64,000 nt of DNA. It comes from Macrostomum lignano (lineage: Eukaryota). Below the pieces are notes generated by a model. That model worked only from the letters and a program-made list of their open reading frames with translations. It was not told the origin of the DNA and did no database searches. The position numbers and the translations under genes were made by a program. Location of the stretch: the NCBI GenBank assembly GCA_002269645.1, contig NIVC01000236.1, positions 434,001-498,000 of the forward strand, in the 5' to 3' direction. Shown here in pieces: positions 7,139 to 60,479 of this stretch; position 1 is the first letter of the stretch; the number at the start of each line of letters is the position of its first letter.

Positions 7139-18356
<11,218 letters not shown>

Positions 18357-25892: not shown

Positions 25893-27425
25893 TCAAGCTC
25901 GTTTCTGCTGCAGCTTGATGCGATAAGGCCGCGGTACCTCGCCGCGTCGGAGCATCCGGCGCATCCGGTCGATGTCAGGTCCGCCGCCGCCGCCGCTTCC
26001 GAGAGCGTCGAACCAGCGCAGGCCGAGATCCGCGCACAGGGCGTGCAGCCTGGCGAAGACCTCCCCGCAGCCGCCGCTGCCCAGCCTGGCGGCCGGCTCG
26101 AAGGCCAGCAGGTTGTACAGCAGGTTCTTCGTACGCTGGTTGAGCTTCGGCCGTTCTTCAACCTTCGGCCTGGGAGCGGCGCGCCAAAGTCGCAGGTAGC
26201 GCCGCTTGGTCAGCTGCGGGTCCTCGCCGCCCGCCGGAGCCGCCGCCAGCGCCTGGCGCTTGTGCTCATCGAACGGCAGCCGGCCGTAGAGCATGTTGAA
26301 GAGCAGCGCTCCGAGGCCGAACCAGTCCGCCGAGTGGTCCACCGAGCCGCCCGACTCGTCCAGCTGCTCAGGCGGCACCCAGCGCACGGACATGAAGGTG
26401 CTGGGGTCGCAGCGGCTGCCCCAGTAGTAGTACGGGTTTTCCATTTTGCGGCCCAGCCGGCATGGCTTGGCCAGGCCGAAGTCGCCCAGCTTGGCGTCGC
26501 CGAACTCGTCCACAAACACGTTGTCCATCTTGAGGTCAAAGTGGATAAAGCCGGACTCGTGTAGGTAAGCCAGGGCCTCGGCCACCTGCAGGGCCAGGTA
26601 GAGCGAGCTGGCCTGCAGAAAGGTGGCTTCCCTGTGCTTGCTGTTGGTCTCTTCCGAGTCCACCGATATGTAGCGCAGCAGCCGCATGGCGTCCCCAATA
26701 GCGTAGTACTCGTAGACCTCGAAGGGCGTGTCGTGCGTGGTGAGCGCGTACTGCGAGTCCAGCAGCCTAGCGATGAAAGGGTGGTCGCAGTGCTGAATGT
26801 GCGCAATGCTCTTCACGATATCCATCGATTCCAGGGTGCGGCCGTGAATCTCCAGCGTCTTGGAGTTCAGCGCGGCGGCTTCGGCTTCGCGGGCGTCACC
26901 AGTCGCAGTTTTGATTTCTTTGACCACCACTGAGCTGCCTTGCATGAGGGCGAGCAGCTGGCGCTGGTCCTTGAGGGATGTTGGGGACAGCGGCATGTCC
27001 TCGTGAGCCTGGAGGCGGCTCAGCCGCTTGGCACACTCGATGCGGGCCAGGTAGGTGGTCCCGAAGCTGCCCTCGCCGATGCGCGCCACGATGCGGTAGG
27101 CGGCGTTGGCCGTCTCCAGTTCGGTGCGGTCGGCCTCCCGCCGGCGCTGCGGAGATAGGTGGTGCCGGGCGCAGGCCGGGATCTCAAACACCCGCTGCGG
27201 CTGCTGTGACTGCAGGCTGCCGGCGCTGCCCGGAGCCTGCGGCCGGCGAGGCGGCGGCATCGCCACGAGCGATGCGCGCGGAGGTTTCGCACCTCCGGAG
27301 TTGCTTCTCTGCCGCGTCAGGAAAGCCAACGAGAAGTGCAGCTGGCCTCTTGAGCGCTTCGCGTTGCGTCTCGAGGGGGGTCTCGGGGCCGTTAGATTGG
27401 CGCTAATATGAGGGAGTTGAGACAA
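25893..27425 (-). CDS. Intronless divergent Ser/Thr protein kinase (AGC-like), 510 aa
   Basis: Gly loop IGEGSFG, VVVKEI, catalytic HFDLKMDN, DFG, WVPPE, SADWFGLGALLFNMLYGRLPF, RLGSGG. Confidence 0.85.
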   Translation of the reverse strand: MSQLPHISANLTAPRPPSRRNAKRSRGQLHFSLAFLTRQRSNSGGAKPPRASLVAMPPPRRPQAPGSAGSLQSQQPQRVFEIPACARHHLSPQRRREADRTELETANAAYRIVARIGEGSFGTTYLARIECAKRLSRLQAHEDMPLSPTSLKDQRQLLALMQGSSVVVKEIKTATGDAREAEAAALNSKTLEIHGRTLESMDIVKSIAHIQHCDHPFIARLLDSQYALTTHDTPFEVYEYYAIGDAMRLLRYISVDSEETNSKHREATFLQASSLYLALQVAEALAYLHESGFIHFDLKMDNVFVDEFGDAKLGDFGLAKPCRLGRKMENPYYYWGSRCDPSTFMSVRWVPPEQLDESGGSVDHSADWFGLGALLFNMLYGRLPFDEHKRQALAAAPAGGEDPQLTKRRYLRLWRAAPRPKVEERPKLNQRTKNLLYNLLAFEPAARLGSGGCGEVFARLHALCADLGLRWFDALGSGGGGGPDIDRMRRMLRRGEVPRPYRIKLQQKRA

Positions 27426-31205: not shown

Positions 31206-31849
31206 TACTTGAACAGGAAAAAATCAAGAAAAAGAAAAAGAAAAAGAAGAAGATAAGAAGCTTTAGCAATCAAAAAGCTTACTTTTTAATAATCGGTTCT
31301 AGTCGCTTTTCTTTTTTCGGAAATCTTGCAGGCTGACTCCTTTTCTGCAGTTTTCTTTCTGTTTCTTCCATCAACCCGCCGAGCCATTTTAACCCCGATG
31401 CGAATGCAGGAAAGGCAAACAGGAGTGGCCACGCAAGTTTTTGTTTCTGCTCCTCCCGCCTACAATTTTCGGGCTCGAAGTGAGCAAGAAAGCAGTGAGA
31501 TTTGGACGAGCGGCAACCTCGGGCCCCCTGAGCTCGCCCTGCCCGCCTGGGTGGGTCCGGCCGGGCCAGCCGCCATTTCTCTCATTGTTTACAAGACTGC
31601 GAATTCCTGCCACCTCTCCGTTGCAACCTTTCAGTGGGCCATCATCTAATGCCAAATTAGGTTCAAAACCGGCTGCAACACAGCGAAACTGGGCAACGCA
31701 TTTCACAGCGTTTCTCTCCGTGTGTTGTTATTGTTGTTACCTTGTTTTCAGCTGGCTGCGGCCGAGAGAAATGTAAAAATAGATTCATTAAATAGCCTCA
31801 TTGTGAATTGGTGTGTCTGGCATTAACGATAGACCGAATTACAGGACAG

Positions 31850-35495
<3,646 letters not shown>

Positions 35496-36009
35496 GTATC
35501 AAAAGAAGCAGCCAAAACCAACAGGAAAAAGATCAAAAGACAGAAGCTTCGGTTCGCAACGTCTTGAACAATAAATCAGCTTTTCCTGCTGGCACAATGC
35601 GGTCTATTTGCCAAAGGAATATCGCTAGTTAATGTCACAGGGTGGGAGCGGCAGAGCTGCGGAGGAGAAAACTGGAGGCGCAGGTAAAGAAGAAAAGCAG
35701 AGAAGTGTCAATGAGAAGCAGAACAGAATAATGCTATGTAATAAACAGTTACGCTTGTGTCTGCAGATTTGTGAGCATTGCAGCCGCAAGACCCAGATGA
35801 CAACTCGGATGGCCGTGAAGCCTGAACAGACTGCAGGGATGCGAGACGCTACTCTAACACAGGTAATCTGAAGTCTTTCTCACAGTAGACGGCTGCGGCA
35901 CCTCTAACGCTTGAGGAAAAGTTTAGAAGCCTCAATCAGTCTTTTCTACTCAAAAAAGACATTGCCGCAAGTTAAAGATAATTATGAATGCGATCCACAC
36001 CAGCTGGTC

Positions 36010-39000
36010 TCAGGCGTTCTGCTGCAGCCGCTCGCCCAGCTGGCGAAGCTCCTCGGCCACCGGCGGCGGCAGGTCGCGGTTGAGCTGGCTGCTGAAGTAG
36101 GTCTCCAGCTCCTTGCACTCGTTCAGCCAGAAGTCCACGGGCACGGAGAACAGCGCGTCGACGTTGACGGGGCTGTCAAGGCCTTCCAGGTTCAGCGCGT
36201 TCGGCTTGGGCAGGCGGCCGATGGGCGAGTCCACAGCGCAGTCCTCGTTGTCCACCCGGCGGCAGATCCAGTCCAGCACGCGGCAGTTCTCGCCAAAGCC
36301 GGGCCACATGAACTTGCCGTCCTCGCCTTTGCGGAACCAGTTCACGTGGAAGATCTTCGGCAACTGGAGGCCGGGCTTCTCGTCGAAGCTCAGCCAGTGG
36401 TCGATGTAGTCGGCAAAGTTGTAGCCGAAGAACGGGCGCATGGCGAAGGGGTCGTGCATGATCACCTTGGTGTTGTGCTCAGCTGCCGCGGTGGCCTCCG
36501 AGCGCATCGCAGCGCCAAGGAAGACGCCGTGGCGCCAGTTATTGGCCTCAAACACCAGCGGCACCCCGGCTGGCCGGCGGCCGCCGAAGATGATGGCGCT
36601 GATGGGAACGCCGGCCGGGCTCTCCCAGTCGGGGTCCATGGAGGGGCACTGCGAGGCCGGGGCGCAGAAGCGGGAGTTGGGGTGCGCGGCCAGGATGCGG
36701 TTGTACGGCGTCCACATCTCGCCCTTCCAGCTGGTGACGCCGACCGAGGTGTCCACCTGGGTAGCGGGACAGCGGCGGGGTGGGGCGTGAAAATGGAGAT
36801 TCTAGAGTTGATGCGAGATTGCCTACTGACAGTTAATAGAGCATCGGGCCTGCGACTCAACTCTTATCGATGTTCTTAACTCAAGGTTTTTGGCAGATCT
36901 TTGCTGGTTTCTGAGGGAGAGTCGGGCAGGTCTTTGCTGGTTTCTGAGGGAGGTTCGGGCAGATCTTTGCTGGTTCTTGAGGGAGGTTCAGGCAAGTCTT
37001 TGCTGGTTTCTGAGGGAGGTTCGGGCAGGTCTTTGCTGGTTTCTGAGGGAGGTTCGGGCAGATCTTTGCTGGTTCTTGAGGGAGGTTCAGGCAAGTCTTT
37101 GCTGGTTTCTGAGGGAGGTTCGGGCAGGTCTTTGCTGGTTTCTGAGGGAGGTTCGGGCAGGTCTTTGCTGGTTTCTGAGGGAGAGTCGGGCAGATCTTTG
37201 CTGGTTTCTGAGGGAGAGTCGGGCAGATCTTTGCTGGTTCTTGAGGGAGGTTCGGGCAAGTCTTTGCTGGTTCTTGAGGGAGGTTCGGGCAGGTCTTTGC
37301 TGGTTTCTGAGGGAGGTTCGGGCAGGTCTTTGCTGGTTTCTGAGGGAGATTCGGGTAGGTCTTTGTTGCTTTTTGAGGAAGATTCGGGTAGGTCTTTGTT
37401 GCTTTTTGTGGAAGATTCGGGCAGGTCTTTGCTGTTTAAAGGGAGCCTTTGGCGCACTGCTCTCCAAGGTACGCCAATCGATTTCCAGGACCAGCAAGCA
37501 GCCACCCGCCCGCTCACCTCCTTCTCGAGGCCCTCCCAGAAGACGCCGCCATCGTCAGTCTCGGCCACATTGGTGAAGATGGTGTTTCGCTGAATCGTCT
37601 TCATGGCGTTGGGATTCGTGTGGCTGCACGTGCCGGGCGCCACGCCGAAGAACCCGGCCTCCGGGTTGATGGCCCGCAGGACGCCCTCGGAATCGAATTT
37701 CATCCAGGCGATGTCGTCGCCAACGCACTCGACCTGGCGGGCGCGGGGAGCCGGGAGCAAACAATTATAGCAAACAATTTATAACATTAATATTTCATAA
37801 TCATTTATACTTCAAGATGAGCAAATTGAGCTATAAATGTTTATAAATGCATAAATTAAGATATATTAGACAGTATTTTTATTATTGTTAGGATTCTTGA
37901 GACTTCAAGCCTTCTTGATCAATTGTCAATATTAGGCAATCTGTAAACATGGAGTCTGAAGACACAATACAACTTTGGTGGGTCAGCAGAGATGCTCAGC
38001 AGTATAAAGGGTAGGGTAGTAGAGATGCTATTTTATTTGATTAATAGCTTTTTTTAACATGGCATTCTAGAATTCAATTTAGCTACATAAATTTGGATCC
38101 AGAGATACCTAATGGCACCATGATGCTAATGCTCAAAAACCAAGGATTTGATTATATTATAAATTAATATTTATATAGTTTTATTAAACTTTATAAACTT
38201 TTATAGATCTATCAAAAATAAATAAACAAAAATAAATAACTTATACATAATATAAACTTAATATAGAAAAACATTATGTCAAATTATTAGACTAAGTATG
38301 GGATGTAAAAAGTAGGAATTAAAAATTAATGGGTCTCCTATAGATGGCCTACATGTGGTCATGGGTGTGGGTGGCAACAATTGTTTGGGCATTTCTAGCA
38401 ATAGAATAATATATATATATATATATAGTATAACAAAAATTAAACAGTATTTAAACAATATAAATTTACCAAAAACCACAAAAACCAATTTCATACAGAA
38501 ATAAACAAAGCTAAGCAGACTTTCTCTAAATTATTGCATTTATAAATTTGAATTTAAAATCATACCTTGTATCCTGGCAGTGTAGGCTGCATCATGGCCA
38601 AGTTGGTCTTTCCACAGGCAGATGGGAATGCAGCAGCAACATACTTCTTCTTGCCCTGTGGATTGGTGATGCCAAGGATGAGCATGTGCTCAGCCAGCCA
38701 GCCTTCCCGCTTGGCCAAGATGGAGCCCAGGCGCAGGGCAAAGCACTTCTTGCCCAGCAGCGAGTTGCCACCATAGCCAGACCCGAAGCTGGCGATCTCG
38801 TTGCGATCGGGAATGTGGGAGATGAGGATCTTGGACGGGTTGCAAGGCCAGTTCTGCACCAGCGGCTTGTTGACACCTGAGAATGGCAGGCCGACCGAGT
38901 GCAAGCACTTGACGAAATTGTCGCCCTGAATAGCCTCAAGAGCGTCCTTGCCCATTCGGGTCATGATGCGCATGGAGGCCACCACATAGGGCGAATCGGT

Positions 39001-39525
39001 GACCTGGATGCCCACCTTGCTGATCGGTCCGCCCACTGGACCCATGGAGAATGGGATGATGTACATTGTCCGGCCCTCCATGCAGCCGGGAAATCGATCC
39101 CGCAGTGCATTCTCCAGCTCGGCAGGAGACAGCCAGTTGCCCAGCTGGCCTTTGACGCCCTCCTTGGGCACCGGGACAGTTTCGCGCTTGTCAGAGGTGC
39201 TGATGACGGTCTTACTCTCGACGCGGGCAACATCAGCAGGGTCCGTGCGCACCAGCCAGCAGTTGTCCATCTTGCGCAGCGGTTTGGCAATGCCAGCGCG
39301 TCGCATGATTTCCAGAAAGCGTTTGTTCTCTTCCTCGGAGCCGTCGCACAAGTACACATCGTCCGGCTGGCAGATGTTGGCCTTCTCTTTAACGTAATTG
39401 CGAGCAATGGTGGGGAGGCTGCTCAGAGTTGTTGGTATGTCAGCTAAGCCGCGACATGGCGTTAGTTTAACTTGCAGGCTGGAACTGAGGAGCCGGTAGA
39501 TTCCAGGTCGAAAAATCCCAGACAT
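36010..39525 (-). CDS. PCK: Phosphoenolpyruvate carboxykinase (GTP), probably mitochondrial; exons 39525-38566, 37733-37518, 36756-36010; 640 aa
   Basis: [59 protein letters not shown]. Basic/hydroxylated N-terminal transit-like peptide. Both introns are phase 0. Confidence 0.95.
36890..37435. repeat. Minisatellite, 33-bp unit (PEPCK intron 2)
   Basis: aggtctttgctggtttctgagggaggttcgggc, about 16 copies. Confidence 0.95.
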
Positions 39526-42690: not shown

Positions 42691-42789
42691 CGAATCTACA
42701 AATCTTCTAACAAAACTTCTACAAGTCTACAAAACTGAGACTGTCTTCTGTTAGACTGGGCTGACCTGTTAGACTGGGACTGTCTTCTG

Positions 42790-44312
42790 TTAGATTGGCT
42801 GTCAAGTGTTAGATTGGCTGTCAAGTGTGAGATTGGCTGTCAAGTGTGAGATTGGCTGTCAAGTGTTAGATTGGCTGTCAAGTGTGAGATTGGCTGTCAA
42901 GTGTTAGATTGGCTGTCAAGTGTGAGATTGGCTGTCAAGTGTTAGATTGGCTGTCAAGTGTGAGATTGGCTGTCAAGTGTGAGATTGGCTGTCAAGTGTG
43001 AGATTGGCTGTCAAGTGTGAGATTGGCTGTCAAGTGTGAGATTGGCTGTCAAGTGTGAGATTGGCTGTCAAGTGTTAGATTGGCTGTCAAGTGTGAGATT
43101 GGCTGTCAAGTGTGAGATTGGCTGTCAAGTGTGAGATTGGCTGTCAAGTGTGAGATTGGCTGTCAAGTGTGAGATTGGCTGTCAAGTGTGAGATTGGCTG
43201 TCAAGTGTTAGATTGGCTGTCAAGTGTGAGATTGGCTGTCAAGTGTTAGATTGGCTGTCAAGTGTGAGATTGGCTGTCAAGTGTGAGATTGGCTGTCAAG
43301 TGTGAGATTGGCTGTCAAGTGTTAGATTGGCTGTCAAGTGTTAGATTGGCTGTCAAGTGTTAGATTGGCTGTCAAGTGTTAGATTGGCTGTCAAGTGTGA
43401 GATTGGCTGTCAAGTGTTAGATTGGCTGTCAAGTGTTAGATTGGCTGTCAAGTGTTAGATTGGCTGTCAAGTGTGAGATTGGCTGTCAAGTGTGAGATTG
43501 GCTGTCAAGTGTGAGATTGGCTGTCAAGTGTGAGATTGGCTGTCAAGTGTGAGATTGGCTGTCAAGTGTGAGATTGGCTGTCAAGTGTTAGATTGGCTGT
43601 CAAGTGTTAGATTGGCTGTCAAGTGTTAGATTGGCTGTCAAGTGTGAGATTGGCTGTCAAGTGTTAGATTGGCTGTCAAGTGTTAGATTGGCTGTCAAGT
43701 GTTAGATTGGCTGTCAAGTGTGAGATTGGCTGTCAAGTGTTAGATTGGCTGTCAAGTGTGAGATTGGCTGTCAAGTGTGAGATTGGCTGTCAGGTGTTAG
43801 ATTGGATGTCAAGTGTTAGATTGGCTGTCAAGTGTGAGATTGGCTGTCAAGTGTTAGATTGGCTGTCAAGTGTTAGATTGGCTGTCAAATGTTAGATTGG
43901 CTGTCAAGTGTGAGATTGGCTGTCAAGTGTGAGATTGGCTGTCAAGTGTTAGATTGGCTGTCAAGTGTGAGATTGGCTGTCAAGTGTTAGATTGGCTGTC
44001 AAGTGTTAGATTGGCTGTCAAGTGTGAGATTGGCTGTCAAGTGTGAGATTGGCTGTCAAGTGTTAGATTGGCTGTCAAGTGTTAGATTGGCTGTCAAGTG
44101 TTAGATTGGCTGTCAAGTGTTAGATTGGCTGTCAAGTGTGAGATTGGCTGTCAAGTGTGAGATTGGCTGTCAAGTGTTAGATTGGCTGTCAAGTGTTAGA
44201 TTGGCTGTCAAGTGTTAGATTGGCTGTCAAGTGTTAGATTGGCTGTCAAGTGTGAGATTGGCTGTCAAGTGTGAGATTGGCTGTCAAGTGTGAGATTGGC
44301 TGTCAAGTGTTA
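42790..44312. repeat. Minisatellite, 19-bp unit, about 80 copies
   Basis: agattggctgtcaagtgt(t/g). Confidence 0.97.
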
Positions 44313-44670
44313 CACACGGAGTCCCGTCTATCACCCTATTAACCTTTTACATAGACAGCAAAATTCTCATTTAGCGAGCTGATGATAGGTTTGTAAAACC
44401 ATTAAGACAAGAAAAAGCAAATTTCAATTTTCGAACGCTCAATATTACTGATTGGAACGGTTATTGGTATTATTACCATCGAACTATTACTATCTTTATT
44501 GCTATTACGAGTATTTAAATAATCAGTAAGATAAGCAAGCCCGGGATGTCAGTAAACAGGGGAAGGCGCACTCAGCGCACTTGCGCAACTGGTGAAGAAG
44601 CAGGCAGCTGAGCAACTCCCGCTGAGCTGCCGCCTCAACTAAAAACAGAGGGAATTTTAAAACATAAAAC

Positions 44671-45637
44671 TGTTGTATCCCCCTTCCTCGCTGGCACGGC
44701 CGGGTTGGGCGACGGGTAGCGGTGTCGGGGTTCGGGTACTGGACTGCCCAGGGCTTACGAGCTCGATCGGCGACCCCGAGGCGTACGGACACTTCGGGGG
44801 GAGGTCAAGGTTGAGAAGTCGAGAGAGAGGGGAGGGGCGGCTGTGGGCGGGCGGCCACTCGACAGCCTGGTGAGTCAAGGAAGAGAGAGAGGGCTGCGGG
44901 CGGTCGGCCACTCGACAGCCTGGTGAGTCAAGGAAAAGAGAGAGGGCTGTGGGCGGGCGGCCACTCGACAGCCTGGTGAGTCAAGGAAGAGAGAGAGGGC
45001 TGCGGGCGGTCGGCCACTCGACAGCCTGGTGAGTCAGACTGAGGAGAGAATGAGAGAGAGAGAGATCAGGAGAGCGACCCCGAGGAACACAGGCAATTGT
45101 CTCGACAGCTTACCGGGCCGGGTCGATTATAGCACTCATACACGGGAAGGCCGATCGATTGCAATAAATTGAGTCTTCGCAGTAAGAGACCGTCTCTACG
45201 GTTGATCGCTGGTCACGTTCGTTTATTTATCGCGGTGGGCGCAAATGGGCGCAGGCACGGTGAGAAAAGGGGCGGGGTCTGAGCGTCGCCTTAAATAACG
45301 AGTAAAAAGGGGCAGGGGCGCAAACAAGGGGGGGGAGAAAGGGCTTAAACAATGGAGCTGATTGACAGCTGATTGGCTGCGGCGAGGGGAGGGTGGAAGC
45401 GCGCACGGCCAGGGAGAGGGAGAGAGAGCAGAGGCCCAGCCAATCAGCACGGCTAGCCAAAGGGCTAAACAGCCAAGGCGAGAGAGAGAGAGAAAGAGAG
45501 CAGAGGCTCAGCCAAAGGGCTCATAGCTCCAGACTGGCTTGAGCCGGGGGGGGGGGGGTAACAATAATCAACTACCAAAGTCAACAACTATCAAAGTGCA
45601 CTTGCACCAGGGGAGCACTGTGACACAGGTCACAACA
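44671..45637 (-). repeat. 3' LTR (967 bp)
   Basis: Copy of 52272-53237, preceded on the minus strand by the polypurine tract. Confidence 0.97.
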
Positions 45638-45648
45638 CCCTCCCCCCT
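45638..45648 (-). promoter_or_regulatory. Polypurine tract (AGGGGGGAGGG)
   Basis: Purine run directly abutting the 3' LTR, preceded by a U-rich tract. Confidence 0.85.
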
Positions 45649-45749
45649 AAAAAAAAGAAAACGACGCGCTTTGACTGAATGAAAATGAAAAAAAATGTAA
45701 TGAAATGAAACTGAATGAAAGAGACCAAGAGTGTCAGGCAGCGGCCGAG

Positions 45750-46005
45750 AGCGCAGGACAGGGGCCGAGGATGTCGGACAGGCCGAGAACACCGGGTACG
45801 GCCGAGAATGCCGGACTGTGGCCGAAAACGCCGGGCATGGCCGAGAATGCCGGACAGCGACCGAGAATGCCGGGCAGCGGCCGAGAATGCCGGGCAGCGG
45901 CCGAGAACGCCTGGCATGGCCGAGAATACCGGACAGCGGCCGAGAATGCCGGGCAGCGGCCGAGAATGCCGGGCAGCGACCGAGAACGCCGGGCATGGCC
46001 GAGAG
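45750..46005. repeat. About 20-bp GC-rich tandem repeat in the retrotransposon 3' UTR
   Basis: gccgagaatgccgggcagcg variants between the ORF3 stop and the PPT. Confidence 0.9.
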
Positions 46006-46137
46006 TGTTCCCCGCCCTTCCTTCGGGGCCGCTCCCAGTGCCAAACAGAGGGATCACAACGACGATCAGAGGAGAGATGGGATGAAATGAAGGAGTGAAG
46101 GTCTCTTGCCCGCCCTGGCATCCTGCCCCAGAACCCC

Positions 46138-47019
46138 CTAGACCGCCACCTCCGCCGCCCGGCGCAACAACCCCAACACGCGTCCTCCGTCGATTAGTTC
46201 AAACTGAGGGATCGCAACACTCATGACGAACCGAGTGCTTCGCTTGAAGGCAGGCCGCCGCCAGACACGCCGAGCATGACCCCGACACTTGGCGCTGATG
46301 TCACGGAGAATGAACTTGACAGTCTGAGCCAAAAGCTCGGCGATTTCGCGTCGATGATCCAGCCGCTCGCTGCCGCACAACCCCACCATTTCAGTCAAAA
46401 GCCGGAACATCGCAGCTGGACTCCCCGACAACAAAGCGTGCCGAAGCTCCGACCGGATTCGAGCTCTTCGCTGCGTTGCCTCCCCGCTCCAGGTGTATTC
46501 CACCTCGGTACTCGGCTCGCTCCTCATCAGCCACGCTGGCGACTCCCGTTGGTCGATGACGAGCTCCGGTTCGTCTTCTGACATCGAAGTTTCGCCGTCG
46601 AATTCATTCAAGAGCTCTTCTTCCTCTGACTGCGTGATTTCACAGCAGCTCTGAGCAGTCTCCTCGCCGCCGCAACCACCACGCTCGCTTCCTTCCGACT
46701 CCCTGTCCTCGTCTGACTCTTCTGTTTCGTCTTCAATCGTTACGACAAACTCCTCCGGGACGCACATCCCATCCGGCGGGACAAAATACCGGGCGCACTC
46801 GAGCGGGTTGCTAACGGCATCCTGCCCGAACCGGTCGTACAGCGCTCGTCGAAACGGACACAGCAGGACCGCACTCGCATGCTGCAGCCTCTGGAAATTC
46901 TCCGTTCCACCGGGTCCACACTTGTCGGGGTGCCGTCGCAGGCTCTCACGGCGGTACGCACGTCGCAGCTCCTCCTCCGTCGCGAAGGGGCTGACACCAA
47001 ACTCGGCGTAGAGGTCCAT
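46138..47019 (-). CDS. ORF3 of the retrotransposon: J-domain (DnaJ/Hsp40, class C-like) protein, 293 aa
   Basis: MDLYAEFGVSPFATEEELRRAYRRESLRRHPDKCGPGGTENFQRLQHASAVLLCPFRRALYDRFG matches J-domain helices I-IV with an intact HPD. It is followed by an acidic tract and a novel basic/helical C-terminus, and lies between pol and the PPT in the same orientation. Confidence 0.9.
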   Translation of the reverse strand: MDLYAEFGVSPFATEEELRRAYRRESLRRHPDKCGPGGTENFQRLQHASAVLLCPFRRALYDRFGQDAVSNPLECARYFVPPDGMCVPEEFVVTIEDETEESDEDRESEGSERGGCGGEETAQSCCEITQSEEEELLNEFDGETSMSEDEPELVIDQRESPAWLMRSEPSTEVEYTWSGEATQRRARIRSELRHALLSGSPAAMFRLLTEMVGLCGSERLDHRREIAELLAQTVKFILRDISAKCRGHARRVWRRPAFKRSTRFVMSVAIPQFELIDGGRVLGLLRRAAEVAV

Positions 47020-47351
47020 GCCCGGAAAGCAGTGCCTGCAACAACCACGACTCACTTTTGAGAGCAGGGCAATGGTTCCTTCGAGCCTCTTTGGGGCGCC
47101 GATCCTTCATCCCTGATGGCAGGGTTGGGCAGGTGGGACCTCCACTGACGGGCCTTAAGAGGGGAATATATATTTTTGTTTGTGAAGCAGAGGCAATAAC
47201 ACGAGCCCAGTTTTCAATAACGCGGGTGATGACGCAGACGATGCTTCGAACCAAATGTTGATGACGCAGGTGATGACGCGGATGATGCTTCGAACCAATT
47301 ATTTATGACACAGGAGATGACGCGACATTGCGCACGCACTCACGTCCGCTC

Positions 47352-50300
47352 TTAATAATAAACGGGCGTTCCATAACGCTGCGGAACCCTTCGATCCCTC
47401 TGGGGTCGACCTTCGATGACTTCAACTGGCGCTTCCGGCTGCGGCTGCACTCCTGGCTGCTGCACATCCATTGGTTCTCCCTCCTCTCGAACCCGCCCGG
47501 AATGTCGCCACCATCGCTCCTCATCCTCATCGTCCGATTCCGTCTCTTGAGCAGGACCTGGGTGGTACCTCCTTGGTGCAGGACGCCGAGGGCCACCGGT
47601 GCCGTCGACCGGGTACTTCCGGTACCGAGGCAGGAGGTTGTTAAAGTGCACCACCTTGATCGGCTTCCGTCGACCTTCCTGTCGAATCCTATAGCGCGTC
47701 TCCGACAGCTTCTCGAGAACTACGGCAGGTCCGGTCCAGGGTGAGTGGAGCTTCGCTTTGGCACCGGCCTTCAACACGGGGTTGTAGACGAACACCTCGT
47801 CGCCAGCCACGAATCTCGACCCTTCACCTTCCGGTCGTACCAGTCTTTCTGCACTCGTTGATATGACGTTATTCTCTCACGCACCACCCGATGGGCTTCC
47901 ACGAGCGTCTCCCGCAGGTTCTGGACTTCCTCGCAGTACGGTTCGATGTCCAGTGGGCGCGCCACTCCCAAGTCAACTGGCAGAGACATCTCGCGACCAT
48001 GCAGAAGGAAGAAGGGTGAGTAGCCGGTGCCGCGGTGCACACTGGAGCGATACGCCATGAGCGCCGGGGCAACGAATTCGTCCCACCGCTCTGATCCGGC
48101 TCCTTCACCAGGTGCGCCCGGATCACTGCAGTCAGCGTCTTATTGAAGCTTTCCACTTGGCCGTTTCCAGAGGGGTGATAGGCGGTCGTACGCGTCTTTC
48201 GGATATTCAGACTTTCGCACAGCTGGCCGATCAATTGCGACTCGAAATTGGCTCCCTGATCCGAGTGGATTGTCCTGGGGCTCCGTAGTGACAGACCCAC
48301 TCCTCGAGCATTGCCCTTGCACAGGTGCTGGCCGTCTGATCTGGCACCGGTACTGCCACTGGCCACTTACTGAACGCGTCCTGCATCGTCAGTATGTATT
48401 TGTTGCCTCGGACGCTGGTTGGCAGTGGTCCAATCAAATCCACCATCACTCTTTCAAACACATGGCTGCTGGGAATCGGCTCCAATGGGGCCTTCCGCCG
48501 CATCCCGGGCTTGCTCCGGTTACAGTCGTCACACCTTCGCACAAACTCCTCGACCTCTCGCTTCAAGCCGGGTCTCCAGAATCGGTTCCTGACTTTCTCC
48601 AGAGTCTTTGCTACGCCGAAGTGTCCACCTCCTGGTCCAGAGTGCAGCGTCTGCAGAGCGTCGGGGATCAATTTCTTCGGGAGAACAGCCCGCGGTGGGT
48701 GACGTCCCAGATCCTTGATGACGAGGGTGTTGTCCACAATTTCCAGCCGAGGCTTTTGTGCCCAGATGGCTCGGGTCGTTGGTGACGCACCCCGAGGTGG
48801 CTCTTCGTTTGCTCGGCCGGCGTGCATCGACTGGTAAACTGGAGCGATGTCGTTGTCCACAGCTTGTGCTGCTGCCAGCTCATCTCGGCTGAGCAACCCG
48901 AGCAGCGTCGTTACCCTGACCCCGGGGAGGTCATCAGTCCGGCACGACGGGCAGTTATCCATTTCGGGATGTCGTCGCGGCGGCTTGCGTGACAGCGCGT
49001 CCGCATTCTGATGACGCGCCCCTGGCCGATGCTCCACTGCGAAGTCGAATGGCGCCAACCTCTCCATCCACCGAGCCAACTGGCCTTCCGGCTGCCTCAT
49101 ACTTCGGAGCCACTGCAGACTTGCGTGGTCGGTGCGCACCCGGAACCTCCGGCCAAGTAGATAGTACCGGAACCTCTCTGCGAATGTCACCAGCGCCAGG
49201 AGCTCGATTCGTGTCGTGCAATAGTTGAATTCGGCCCCTTGCAGACGCCGACTCCCGTACGCAATAACCCGCTCTGACCCGTCTTCTTGTACCTGCGACA
49301 AGACTGCTCCGAGACCCTGTCGGGTACTTCCATCGGTATCCAAGATGAACTCACCAGCCGTGGGGTCGAAGTTCGGGTAGGCCATCACGCGGCAACCGGT
49401 CAATTCTTCTTTCAGCTTTTTGAAGGCCTCATCGTGTTCCTCTCTCCAACTGAACGGCTTGTCTTTCTTTGTCAGATCAAAAAGTGGTGCAGCGACTATC
49501 GAGAATTCTGGTATGAAGTTTCGGTAGTAACCAGCCAGACCCAGGAACGACTGAAGGTCTTTTGCATTTCTTGGAATGCTCCAGTCACGGACTTCCTTGA
49601 TCTTCTCCGGGTCGACATCGATTCCGTCCTTTGACACGACGTGGCCAAGGAATTTGACCTCATCGGCCAGGAATCTGCACTTAGATGGCTTTAGCCTCAA
49701 GTTGGCTGCGCGCAGGCGCTGGAATACCGCCTCGAGATTCGTTAGATGCTCGCTGACAGTTCGGGACCAAATGATGATATCGTCGATGTAGACGAGCGCC
49801 ATTTTCCACAGAAGGTCGTGTAGTACCATATTCATCAACCTTGTGAATGTCGCCGGCGCATTGGTCAATCCGAAGGGCAGCACCTTGAACGCGAATTGCC
49901 CCCGATGCGGAATGACAAAAGCAGTCTTTTCTTGATCCTCCCTTTTGACCTTAACTTGCCAATAGCCGGAGCAAAGGTCGAGCGTCGAAAATACAGCCGC
50001 ACCTCCGAGCGCTTCAAGTGCGTCATCGACACGCGGGATTGCTATGGCGTCCTTGACAGTTCGTTGATTCAACTCTCTGTAGTCGACACACAGTCGCAGT
50101 TCCCCATTCTTTTTACGGACACAGACCACTGGCGAACTCCACGGCGATTGGGTCGGTTCAATCATCTTCGTTGCCAAAAGCTCGTCGATTTGTCGGTCGA
50201 CTTCGCCGCGCCAATGTGGCGGTAGCCGTCGCGGAGGCTGTTTTACGGCTGTTCCGGTGGTCTCAATTTCATGCTGCACGATGTCCGTCGTCCCGAGGCG

Positions 50301-51302
50301 CGCTGTACTCTCTGCGAAAACATCTGCGTATCGATTCACCAATCTTAGGAAACTCGCTTTGTCTGCCCCCGTGAGCTGCTTGGAGCCGTGCTGGTTCAGT
50401 GCCGCCTCTGGGTCCCATGGATCGCAGCTGGGTCGTAAAACCGACGCTTGCTCTTCGATGCTGGCTACCAGAACCTCTTGAGCCGGATCTGATGGTCGAA
50501 ACCAGCCGATGACAGCTCCCTTCCGCAGCCGCAGCTCGGAGTCCGTGACATTCGCGAAGTGAACTGGTAGGGTGTTGCCCTGCTGGATGAGGCAGACGCT
50601 CCTGGCTAGCATTGGTCTCTCATCGCTCTTCAGTTTTTCGTCTGGTTCGGCGACGCCGAGCACTCCGGAATTCTGTGTCGCTGTTCTCCGAATCCTGGCT
50701 GAGACGGTCCGTTCGTGATTGGCCGGAATGATCAAGTTTTCGTTCAGGTACAACCGGCAGACGACTGGTTTGTGCTTGGTCTCTCGGATTGGCACACGTG
50801 AACCGTTCACGCGGAAAACTCCTCCGGCGAAATCGATTTGGCACCGGTGGCGGCGTAAGAAGTCGGTGCCTAGCAACAGTTCGTAGCCGACCCCTTGGAC
50901 CACCGCAATTGGCGTCTGTAAAGTTTCTGATCCGAACTGTAGGGGAAGCGACGCGCATCCTAACACATTCATGGGAGTTCCGTTCGCTGAGATCAGGTGG
51001 GTTTCCGAAGGGCTGAGTTCAACTCGAACCGACTTGCTCAACTGCCGCCAGGTCCTCTCGTTCACCAGCGACATGACCGAGCCCGAATCCAACAGACACG
51101 GCAACTCAATCTCGCCAATTTTTACCGACACGTAGATTGACACGGGATTAAAAGCTGTTGCAGGTTGATCTCTATCTCTTGAGCAGTCCGCCGGACATCC
51201 TGCTGCACGTCGCTCCGGGGCTGCATCTTCGTCTCGGGTTGGGGCCTCTACTGTCTCGGCGGAACTCCCTCGCCCCTGCGGAAGTTCCCCTTGCCGTTTC
51301 CC
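47352..51302 (-). CDS. pol: Pol (protease, RT, RNase H, integrase with GPY/F-type tail), reached by a probable -1 frameshift; integrase interrupted by three apparent 1-nt deletions (about 48278, 48086, 47817)
   Basis: LLDSGS, LCVDYRELN, YIDDII, ILDTDGS/ELLAL/TDHASL, HHCC zinc finger (LHSGPGGGHFG...CDDC), VDLIGP, HSDQGANF, HPSGNGQVE, SPWTGP. The pol frame is open back to GGGAAAC at 51302-51296. Confidence 0.92.
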
Positions 51303-52228
51303 TGTTGCTGACGGGTTGGGCAGTTAGTCGCGATGTGCCCTGGCTTGTTGCAGAAGAAGCAGCGAATTCCTCCCGTTCGTCGAGGCTTCTGATGGTCGCC
51401 TTCGTCGGAGTCGGTCGGTCGAGCTGCGGCGCTGCTATGCGGTTCCGCTCTCAGCGACTCGAGCTGAACCACTTTGCCTTGAAGCTGCCTCACCAGTTTC
51501 TTCAACTCCTCGAGCTCTTTGTCCTTTTCTTGGGAGTAGGCTCCATCCTCCCGAGGCACAGATTCCGCCGCGCCGCTCACCACGAAGACTCCTCGGTGGC
51601 CGCTGCCAGTTGCTCCAGCCGATCTCGGTCCCTTCGCCGCCTTGGACGCCGCCTCGAGCTGCCTCACCGCGCGTTGTGCTGCCACCAGACCTTCGGGCTG
51701 CTGCAGGTAGAGCTTCTCTCGCTGGAGGTCGGAGAGTCTCACCCCTTGCATGAAGCGATCCTTTGCGAGGTCGTCCTGCAGCTCGGCAGTTGCCGCCGGG
51801 TAGGCACAGCGCACCAGTTCAAGGAGAGCATCTGCGTAGGCCTCCAACGACTCGCCATCCTTCTGATCTCGGGTTTTTAGCTCGACCTTGCTGTCCTGCT
51901 CTGTCCGGTACCGGGAGAAGCGAGCCTCCAACCGGGCGGTGAATCCCTCGTAGTCCAGCGGATCCACAGGATCGTCGGGTCCCGGCAGGTTCAGATTATC
52001 GACCGCAGCGTACGCCGTAGCGAGATCCAGCATGCTCATCAAGTGCTCGCGGCGATGCTCCTCGTCAATCTCGGCGGAGTCGCAATAAGCGTTGAAAGAG
52101 CGCAGCCAGAGTCGAAAATTCATGCTTGACGTGTACTTCACGGGCTTCGGGAGTCTCGGTGGCTGGGCTGGTCCATCCGCTCGCAGACGCTCGGCTAGCA
52201 GCCGAATCAGTTCGTCCACATTCGCCAT
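51248..52228 (-). CDS. gag: Gag (326 aa) with a single CCHC zinc knuckle
   Basis: CFFCNKPGHIATNC knuckle; retrotransposon gag-like QKDGESLEAYADALLEL; located just after the PBS. Confidence 0.9.
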   Translation of the reverse strand: MANVDELIRLLAERLRADGPAQPPRLPKPVKYTSSMNFRLWLRSFNAYCDSAEIDEEHRREHLMSMLDLATAYAAVDNLNLPGPDDPVDPLDYEGFTARLEARFSRYRTEQDSKVELKTRDQKDGESLEAYADALLELVRCAYPAATAELQDDLAKDRFMQGVRLSDLQREKLYLQQPEGLVAAQRAVRQLEAASKAAKGPRSAGATGSGHRGVFVVSGAAESVPREDGAYSQEKDKELEELKKLVRQLQGKVVQLESLRAEPHSSAAARPTDSDEGDHQKPRRTGGIRCFFCNKPGHIATNCPTRQQQGNGKGNFRRGEGVPPRQ

Positions 52229-52252
52229 GACAGCTCACAAGCAAACTGAGCA

Positions 52253-52270
52253 GTCCCTGTTCGGGCGCCA
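52253..52270 (-). promoter_or_regulatory. Primer binding site for tRNA-Lys (TGGCGCCCGAACAGGGAC)
   Basis: 18-mer 1 nt inside the 5' LTR, complementary to the 3' end of tRNA-Lys(UUU). Confidence 0.92.
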
Positions 52271-52271
52271 A

Positions 52272-53237
52272 TGTTGTATCCCCCTTCCTCGCTGGCACGG
52301 CCGGGTTGGGCGACGGGTAGCGGTGTCGGGGTTCGGGTACTGGACTGCCCAGGGCTTACGAGCTCGATCGGCGACCCCGAGGCGTACGGACACTTCGGGG
52401 GGAGGTCAAGGTTGAGAAGTCGAGAGAGAGGGGAGGGGCGGCTGTGGGCGGGCGGCCACTCGACAGCCTGGTGAGTCAAGGAAGAGAGAGAGGGCTGCGG
52501 GCGGTCGGCCACTCGACAGCCTGGTGAGTCAAGGAAAAGAGAGAGGGCTGTGGGCGGGCGGCCACTCGACAGCCTGGTGAGTCAAGGAAGAGAGAGAGGG
52601 CTGCGGGCGGTCGGCCACTCGACAGCCTGGTGAGTCAGACTGAGGAGAGAATGAGAGAGAGAGAGATCAGGAGAGCGACCCCGAGGAACACAGGCAATTG
52701 TCTCGACAGCTTACCGGGCCGGGTCGATTATAGCACTCATACACGGGAAGGCCGATCGATTGCAATAAATTGAGTCTTCGCAGTAAGAGACCGTCTCTAC
52801 GGTTGATCGCTGGTCACGTTCGTTTATTTATCGCGGTGGGCGCAAATGGGCGCAGGCACGGTGAGAAAAGGGGCGGGGTCTGAGCGTCGCCTTAAATAAC
52901 GAGTAAAAAGGGGCAGGGGCGCAAACAAGGGGGGGGAGAAAGGGCTTAAACAATGGAGCTGATTGACAGCTGATTGGCTGCGGCGAGGGGAGGGTGGAAG
53001 CGCGCACGGCCAGGGAGAGGGAGAGAGAGCAGAGGCCCAGCCAATCAGCACGGCTAGCCAAAGGGCTAAACAGCCAAGGCGAGAGAGAGAGAGAAAGAGA
53101 GCAGAGGCTCAGCCAAAGGGCTCATAGCTCCAGACTGGCTTGAGCCGGGGGGGGGGGGTAACAATAATCAACTACCAAAGTCAACAACTATCAAAGTGCA
53201 CTTGCACCAGGGGAGCACTGTGACACAGGTCACAACA
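52272..53237 (-). repeat. 5' LTR (966 bp)
   Basis: Directly repeated at 44671-45637; the only difference I could see is the poly-G length. TATA-like TATTTAAG, AATAAA at 52828-52823, CCAAT boxes. Confidence 0.97.
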
Positions 53238-53600
53238 AAACAAGGTCAGCCGGGTTCGCAAGGGGACAGCGGGACGCTGAAGCACCCCGACTAATTAACT
53301 AAGTTAAAATATTAACACACCCTCTCGGGTAGAGTTGAGTAACAATGTGACATCTGTACACAAAGATTCGCTTAGGATGGGGCCGGGGCCAAGCACTCCA
53401 GCGAGGGCATGCATTGGCGAGGTGGGAAATTTCCGCTGAACCTTCTTGTTCGTCTTCATAAATGGGAAGCAAAATGCAGCACTTCGGGGGGGGGTGTAAA
53501 ATTTCCTAACTCGCCAATGAATTTCCTTGCGTTTAGGGAAATTCGGATTTAATTGGGTCTGCCTAAGAGACCAGACCTCCTCGAGGCCGCTCAACGTGAC

Positions 53601-60479
<6,879 letters not shown>

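Follow-up and report, generated by a model that had tools for sequence, protein, structure and literature searches.

A J-domain protein gene carried as a third open reading frame by Ty3/Gypsy retrotransposons of the flatworm Macrostomum lignano

Within the genome of Macrostomum lignano, Ty3/Gypsy LTR retrotransposons carry between pol and the 3' LTR a third open reading frame (ORF3) that encodes a J-domain protein. ORF3 is an accessory gene borne by the elements themselves, with the pattern of a single old acquisition that was subsequently retained. The same ORF3 is found behind pol in seven diverged families (A, B, C, D, E, G and I, the letters A-I being labels coined in the present analysis), its copies are linked to reverse transcriptase (RT) sequences, and its dN/dS values are low, in agreement with a first-pass annotation that had described the gene as the element's own; it also proves to be of old standing and subject to purifying selection.

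The window, that is, the whole stretch of 64,000 nucleotides that was analysed, contains a family A element of 8567 bp on the minus strand (44671..53237), with TG...CA ends and flanked by a 4-bp target site duplication (TSD), AAAC, at 44667-44670 and 53238-53241. The 5' LTR (52272..53237, 966 bp) and the 3' LTR (44671..45637, 967 bp) are one indel and no substitutions apart, and thus the insertion is young; a TATA-like motif occurs at LTR position 340 and AATAAA at position 410. Along the same strand, a primer binding site (PBS, 52253..52270) complementary to the 3' end of the host tRNA-Lys(TTT) is followed by gag (51248..52228, 326 aa with a CCHC zinc knuckle), pol (47370..51300, encoding protease, RT, RNase H and integrase in the Gypsy domain order, with its stop at about 47370), a spacer with short repeats and an acceptor-like YAG ending at 47036 (47020..47369), ORF3 (46138..47019, 293 aa from ATG to TAG), a 3' UTR array of ~20-nt repeats whose length varies among copies (45760..46035), and a polypurine tract (PPT, 45638..45648). 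The LTRs, TSD, PBS, PPT, gag and the order protease-RT-RNase H-integrase identify a Ty3/Gypsy LTR retrotransposon, and the placement of ORF3, 351 nt past the pol stop and 500 nt ahead of the 3' LTR, agrees in coordinates and strand with the earlier description of an intact 293-aa frame between pol and the PPT, inside both LTRs and on the gag/pol strand. The integrase region of this copy is frameshifted, with three breaks between ~47800 and ~48270 that were absent from the earlier description; gag and ORF3 are both open despite this damage. An Rfam search of 44000-54000 returned no match.

Elsewhere in the window, inspection by eye picked out a PEPCK-like gene in three frames (36010-39525, minus strand) with a tandem-repeat stretch inside it (~37100-37700), a Ser/Thr kinase-like ORF (25893-27260, minus strand), GPCR-like exons (10059-12221, minus strand) and a CtBP-like exon (60108-60476, minus strand). 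Satellite arrays of 4/8/12-nt and 20-nt units occupy 31700-35500, 42780-44310 and 15600-16200, and one of them ends ~350 bp from the family A element.

The ORF3 protein of the window, encoded throughout on the minus strand, falls into three parts. Residues 1-99 (46723..47019) comprise a J domain at residues 2-62, with its HPD motif at residues 30-32, and a short helical extension; residues 100-175 (46495..46722) form an acidic linker that is predicted to be disordered (27 D/E versus 4 K/R); and residues 176-293 (46138..46494) form a conserved basic domain of five helices (23 K/R versus 11 D/E) that belongs to no known Pfam family. Pfam DnaJ matches residues 2-62 at E 1.2e-12, above the cut-off, and with the HPD intact and the YDRFG present, both the complete J domain and the acidic linker with its unrecognised basic C-terminal region stand as first described. 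The hydropathy maximum over 19 residues is 1.09, which indicates that there is no transmembrane (TM) segment, and by the same measure none of nine ORF3-type proteins has one. With this peak, and with DnaJ as the sole Pfam finding, ORF3 differs from env products, which are membrane glycoproteins that have a signal peptide and are anchored by a TM segment, and the earlier verdict that it is not env is upheld.

In AlphaFold models of ORF3 the J domain, which continues into the helical extension, is predicted with confidence, the acidic linker is disordered, and the C-terminal domain folds into five helices. The modelled J fold has a pLDDT over 90 and superposes on several solved J domains with an rmsd of 1.2-1.8 Å. 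The G/F region, zinc finger and beta-sandwich domains of classes A and B are lacking, and the J fold, HPD and layout characterize ORF3, as judged from sequence and model, as a predicted class C J-domain protein. The C-terminal part, which lies within the residues 70-293 that the first-pass annotation had marked for AlphaFold prediction, proved to be a confident five-helix domain when modelled alone (pLDDT 92.6, pTM 0.86), and residues R, L, G, Q, D and W occupy invariant positions in its alignment. Searches of Pfam gave nothing above cut-off for any of the eight members, searches of BFVD gave no match at E<=0.001, and the ESM Atlas gave no usable ORF3-related match. Against the PDB the best hits were cobalamin-binding cap-type bundles (Z 8.1, rmsd 2.2 Å over 80 residues), a score that lies within the background for helical bundles, so that the fold is without a functional clue. 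The basic five-helix domain is a new conserved protein domain.

A search of the genome with ORF3 gave 153 matches, 150 of them listed, although such counts are not counts of insertions since the published M. lignano assembly is described as redundant in the accessible text of PMC12801592. At least 14 matches are full-length at 99-100% identity, and 12 of 14 keep both the ATG and the HPD. At all 25 of the near-identical loci fetched, the 3' end of pol, ORF3 and the 3' UTR stand in line, and the host-genome search that had been proposed as a check thus finds ORF3 inside its element context at each of these 25 loci. Loci of more distant matches were sampled by reading three of ~60 at 30-35% identity, one per apparent family, and seven more from further groups. 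In families B, C and D, gag, pol and ORF3 are all present, with LTR pairs in B and D that are 99.4-99.6% identical over the parts fetched, and in families E, G and I ORF3 comes after pol. Between families, RT is 56-64% identical and ORF3 27-40% identical.

By coordinates, 80 of the 100 nearest RT matches are followed downstream on the same strand by a match to the J or the C-terminal domain, mostly at an RT-to-ORF3 distance of 2.0-2.2 kb, an arrangement with a chance expectation of ~4e-4 per RT match; three others have a TatD-like match alone, and 17 have none among the matches listed. These 17 include all six RT matches of family F, and the family F locus that was read has a satellite array and no ORF3. 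Three of the loci, with a pol interrupted by a LINE-like insert (L037), a satellite array after a broken integrase (L036) and a C-terminal fragment whose upstream 2.5 kb contain no pol (L038), speak neither for nor against linkage of ORF3 to pol. The pol and ORF3 trees are concordant at supported nodes, where C is joined with C' and G with I. At G000:C3819:26050-30167 a family D ORF3 is inverted relative to its own pol, owing to either a rearrangement or an assembly error.

Purifying selection is evident in both folded parts of the protein, as all eight dN/dS comparisons between subfamilies, a check suggested beforehand, are below 1. The J region has values of 0.09-0.16 and the C-terminal domain values of 0.20-0.25 (four comparisons each, bootstrap intervals below 1), figures that are rough because dS, at 1.0-2.2, is near saturation, and three of the four J comparisons use the same family A sequence. 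The linker gives 0.20 and 0.51. Among five copies of family D there are 19 synonymous versus 13 replacement changes (pN/pS 0.22), and among 18 loci of family A, on only 18 changes, seven synonymous versus 11 replacement (pN/pS 0.51); the integrase of C versus C' has a dN/dS of 0.52, but involves a decayed copy and is not a clean control. Two integrase control comparisons of family A were discarded as mis-framed. The HPD is intact in 12 of the 13 ORF3 lineages compared.

The closest of 19 host J domains is 37-42% identical to ORF3, over the J domain only, and among 63 matches no host gene with the ORF3 C-terminal domain was found, bar some fragments. The phylogeny of the J domain against host DNAJ genes, as first suggested, yields a qualified answer: 12 element-type J domains form one group versus 18 host J domains with support of 83/99, a value below the tool's starred level, and an initial tree that included more outgroups placed family E apart from the element group. 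The second tree has L065 in the element group and omits L066 as a long branch. The J domain of L066 (G000:C575:335200-336400) sits in a 1449-aa open frame that is unrelated to ORF3 and occurs in five places (also C1901, C3488 twice and C1744); this frame could be another multi-copy gene or mobile element.

One might suppose that ORF3 is a passenger, a host DNAJ gene lately transduced into one element and decaying neutrally, and the public filing of the family D ORF3 as a host gene (PAA83624.1) fits such a view. Host J domains so distant and confined to the J domain, a C-terminal domain in no host gene found, and seven families with dN/dS well below 1 leave it next to no probability, and it is ruled out by the dN/dS values together with the presence of ORF3 downstream of 80 of the 100 nearest RT matches. 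The outcome that the first-pass annotation had set against its own proposal, a single-copy recent transduction of a near-identical host DNAJ gene, fails on the same seven families and low dN/dS.

ORF3 is modular, consisting of a core to which domains have been added by family. In family D a chromodomain lies within the linker part, between the J and C-terminal domains (Pfam E 1.4e-12). Its closest solved relatives are Swi6 and HP1, and it has two of the three cage aromatics; the third position is V or L, which makes methyl-lysine binding uncertain. The chromodomain was detected in this one family alone, and the B, C and D pol frames gave no match to Chromo, which chromoviruses have at the integrase C-terminus. 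In families G and I a TatD-like domain is appended to ORF3 (L035:3458-5131; L040:2453-3701) at a Pfam E of 5.5e-05, below the cut-off, and in family G its catalytic residues look altered when set against the motif. The HPD is missing in family G and present in family I. The family G ORF3 is nevertheless an open frame of 558 aa that retains the C-terminal domain and has at least 13 near-identical long matches, and the amplification of a family without the HPD shows that some lineages can do without canonical Hsp70 stimulation. A 181-aa TatD-like ORF seems to be all that a related family has behind pol, with no match to the J or the C-terminal domain (G000:C222:40073-40588, C150:364368-364862, C2475:101461-101976). 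Family F and the three RT matches with a TatD-like match alone indicate that close relatives manage without the J protein. The locus L039 (G000:C94:929800-933200) is a mosaic in comparison with family C, its pol being 93% and its ORF3 69% identical at the DNA level, which points to exchange of the ORF3 cassette.

An exhaustive single-sequence search recovered the same J plus C-terminal layout outside this genome in P0002, P0004 and P0006, which are full-length, and in P0057, which is partial, all four being Logan and JGI records. In long matches P0004 and P0006, the two for which distinctness was tested, are at most 46-47% identical to anything in the M. lignano genome, and thus originate elsewhere. 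Metagenome and viral scans found no genomic locus for the outside homologues. Searches with the C-terminal domain gave no further homologues, and as one of them missed the known member P0002 they are insensitive. A candidate chromodomain remnant in P0057 was unsupported.

Features around the start codon suggest how ORF3 could be expressed. A YAG lies within 1 nt of the ATG in four (B, C, D and E) of the six families with an ATG at the J start, and the YAG to ATG distance is 7 nt in G and 16 nt in A; C' and D'' likewise retain a YAG near the ATG. For four of seven families to have YAG at the ATG, a rough binomial calculation gives 4e-4. To judge by these sequence signals, the most likely source of ORF3 protein is a subgenomic RNA of its own, either spliced or spliced-leader (SL) trans-spliced. 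Three presumed RNA runs and one unlabelled run have contigs that cover ORF3, gag and pol; these hold no splice joint at the acceptor before ORF3, an absence that settles nothing as such contigs drop rare forms. Of 24 sequencing records, 19 contain the queried stretch and none is recorded as RNA. Candidate joints 46278 -> 52761 and 47463 -> 52761, with sides of 21-22 nt and loose ends, were rejected as chance matches of SL-capped host transcripts. The gene identifiers Mlig001265 and Mlig020785 did not turn up in the supplements searched for PMC5730564 and PMC5816591, nor in supplement 2 of PMC12801592, which uses other identifiers.

The 5' LTR also holds a spliced-leader-like stretch (52761..52804, minus strand), with a twin in the 3' LTR at ~45160-45203, and within it 52793-52761 is identical to 33 nt of the 35-nt SL published for M. 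lignano. It begins ~20 nt past the poly(A) signal, is without a donor site and is kept in the 21 loci that reach there; it may have been left behind when a trans-spliced element RNA was reverse transcribed. Contig depth at this stretch is 54,000-72,000 in three runs, versus 5-15 inside the element.

As the best explanation we tentatively propose, at a likelihood falling just short of even, that ORF3 is a class C J protein that delivers Hsc70 to a nuclear, probably silencing-related target. The pattern of its occurrence shows a gene acquired once, in an ancestor of this Gypsy clade, and selection has retained it. Its J domain, given the fold and the HPD, would trigger ATP hydrolysis by the host Hsc70, and stimulation of Hsc70 is in our view quite probable. 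The five-helix basic domain, across the flexible acidic linker, may hold a client or a nucleic-acid-protein complex, and Hsc70 would thereby be delivered to a target of the element's choosing. The target might be chromatin that is silenced or a complex that silences the element; Hsc70 would loosen it much as the SV40 T-antigen J domain acts on Rb-E2F, and the HP1-like chromodomain in D and the TatD-like domain in G and I would retarget the core. If Hsc70 is indeed stimulated, the chance that the target is nuclear and related to silencing is about even; such a target is favoured by the HP1-type chromodomain and the swapping of the ORF3 cassette. This reading is weakened by family G, which lacks the HPD, by family F, which lacks ORF3, and by the restriction of the chromodomain to a single family. 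The first-pass annotation had proposed a dedicated Hsp70 adaptor, and the J fold with HPD in 12 of 13 lineages supports this, with the proviso from family G that the HPD is not universal; of the two roles it had offered, the family D chromodomain tilts the balance to chromatin or silencing and leaves assembly of virus-like particles (VLP) less favoured. It is possible, but rather unlikely, that the whole Gypsy clade carries a modular anti-silencing J protein that recruits host Hsc70 to dismantle H3K9-methylated chromatin or silencing complexes on the element, with operon-like expression by the host's SL trans-splicing, and with swapping and re-equipping among lineages as part of an arms race with the host.

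Other uses of a J protein have to be weighed against delivery of Hsc70 to a nuclear target. Hsp70 and Hsp40 assist reverse-transcribing agents, and ORF3 might be a cytoplasmic assembly factor that brings Hsc70 to Gag, Gag-Pol or genomic RNA for particle assembly or RT activation. The conserved J domain and HPD would suit this role, as would the basic C-terminal domain, whose invariant R and W residues could bind RNA; an HP1-type chromodomain has no clear cytoplasmic use, sister families without ORF3 or the HPD still spread (RT 56-81% identical), and an ORF3 that is swapped (69%) under a pol of 93% speaks against ORF3 being closely matched to the Gag or Pol of its element, all of which renders an assembly factor doubtful. 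The retention in family G of the C-terminal domain in an open 558-aa frame without the HPD raises the further prospect that the helical domain and its add-ons do the work, with the J domain reduced to a fold remnant or a tuner that is not essential. The J region is the most constrained (dN/dS 0.09-0.16 versus 0.20-0.25) and the HPD is kept in 12 of 13 lineages, and so dispensable a J domain seems distinctly improbable.

ORF3 could also manipulate the stress response, occupying or redirecting Hsc70 and thereby disturbing HSF1 or the piRNA machinery that depends on chaperones, with a general loosening of transposon control. Phage Rki acts in this way on sigma32 according to the accessible text of PMC13254874, M. 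lignano LTR families with heat-shock elements are reported as strongly heat-induced in that of PMC12801592, and chaperones participate in piRNA silencing, so far as the sources available describe it. The family A LTR, however, has no canonical heat-shock element, and scans of parts of the B, C and D LTRs found none either, so that these families would have no direct gain from HSF1, and the conserved C-terminal domain and the chromodomain are left unexplained; stress manipulation is accordingly held to be improbable.

Non-envelope cargo in this position has a precedent in bdelloid rotifers, whose LTR retrotransposons carry ORF3s encoding a GDSL esterase or a DEDDy exonuclease (PMC5408684, as far as its accessible text goes). 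The rotifer and flatworm ORF3s have in common a captured non-envelope gene between pol and the 3' LTR and modular exchange among lineages, but the rotifer cargoes are enzymes whereas the flatworm cargo combines the J domain of a predicted Hsp70 co-chaperone with a helical domain that is new. Virus-encoded J proteins include the polyomavirus T antigen and Rki of phage RB43, with HSV-1 ICP22 as a mimic, and the section on them in the accessible part of PMC13254874 names none from a retroelement. They share with the predicted role of ORF3 that a mobile genetic element encodes a class C J protein and through it directs the Hsp70 of its host; ORF3 differs in belonging to an LTR retrotransposon, and the sequence link is limited to the J domain. 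Chromoviruses resemble family D in that a Gypsy element encodes an HP1-like chromodomain, although in family D it is inside ORF3 and none is on the integrase. DNAJC9 is a histone co-chaperone and shares with ORF3 an N-terminal J domain, a helical extension and an acidic stretch, and the host DNAJC9 exon aligns to position 88 of the ORF3 profile, slightly beyond other host J proteins. ORF3 nonetheless lacks, by Pfam, the HTH_DNAJC9 domain after its J domain, and DNAJC9 grouped with it in neither J tree.

The elements themselves are candidate members of the Osvaldo type, of which 40 families (Gmr1/Osvaldo cluster) are reported in M. lignano in the available text of PMC12801592, and for which that of PMC3286476 gives as traits a tRNA-Lys PBS, an LTR near 1 kb and a mostly 4-bp TSD. 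Families A and B have a tRNA-Lys PBS while that of family D differs, and family A has a 4-bp TSD and an LTR of 966 bp, just below the 997-2055 bp of Culex (PMC3286476). The literature searched makes no mention of a J-domain ORF3 in Osvaldo-type elements, and full-text searches of openly accessible articles found none in any LTR element; the term DnaJ has no occurrence in the main text of PMC12801592 or in PMC13524379, PMC6338049 and PMC8775202. Non-env ORF3s and virus-encoded J proteins are thus already known, and a J-domain ORF3 in an LTR retrotransposon appears to be new.

The family D ORF3 is identical letter for letter to PAA83624.1, filed in the database as a host 'J domain-containing protein', and some annotated 'J-domain genes' of M. 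lignano are therefore retrotransposon ORF3s. Few accessory genes other than env are known from LTR retrotransposons, and most of those await explanation; here the J domain, through Hsp70, offers a clear biochemical handle together with natural variants with and without the HPD, the chromodomain and the TatD-like domain. The link between chaperones and silencing has so far been known from the host side. M. lignano is a model animal with RNAi and transgenesis, and the use of host chaperones by a transposon against silencing is directly testable in it. The conservation of the J-protein ORF3 suggests that these elements steer a host chaperone toward their own copying or toward escape from silencing.
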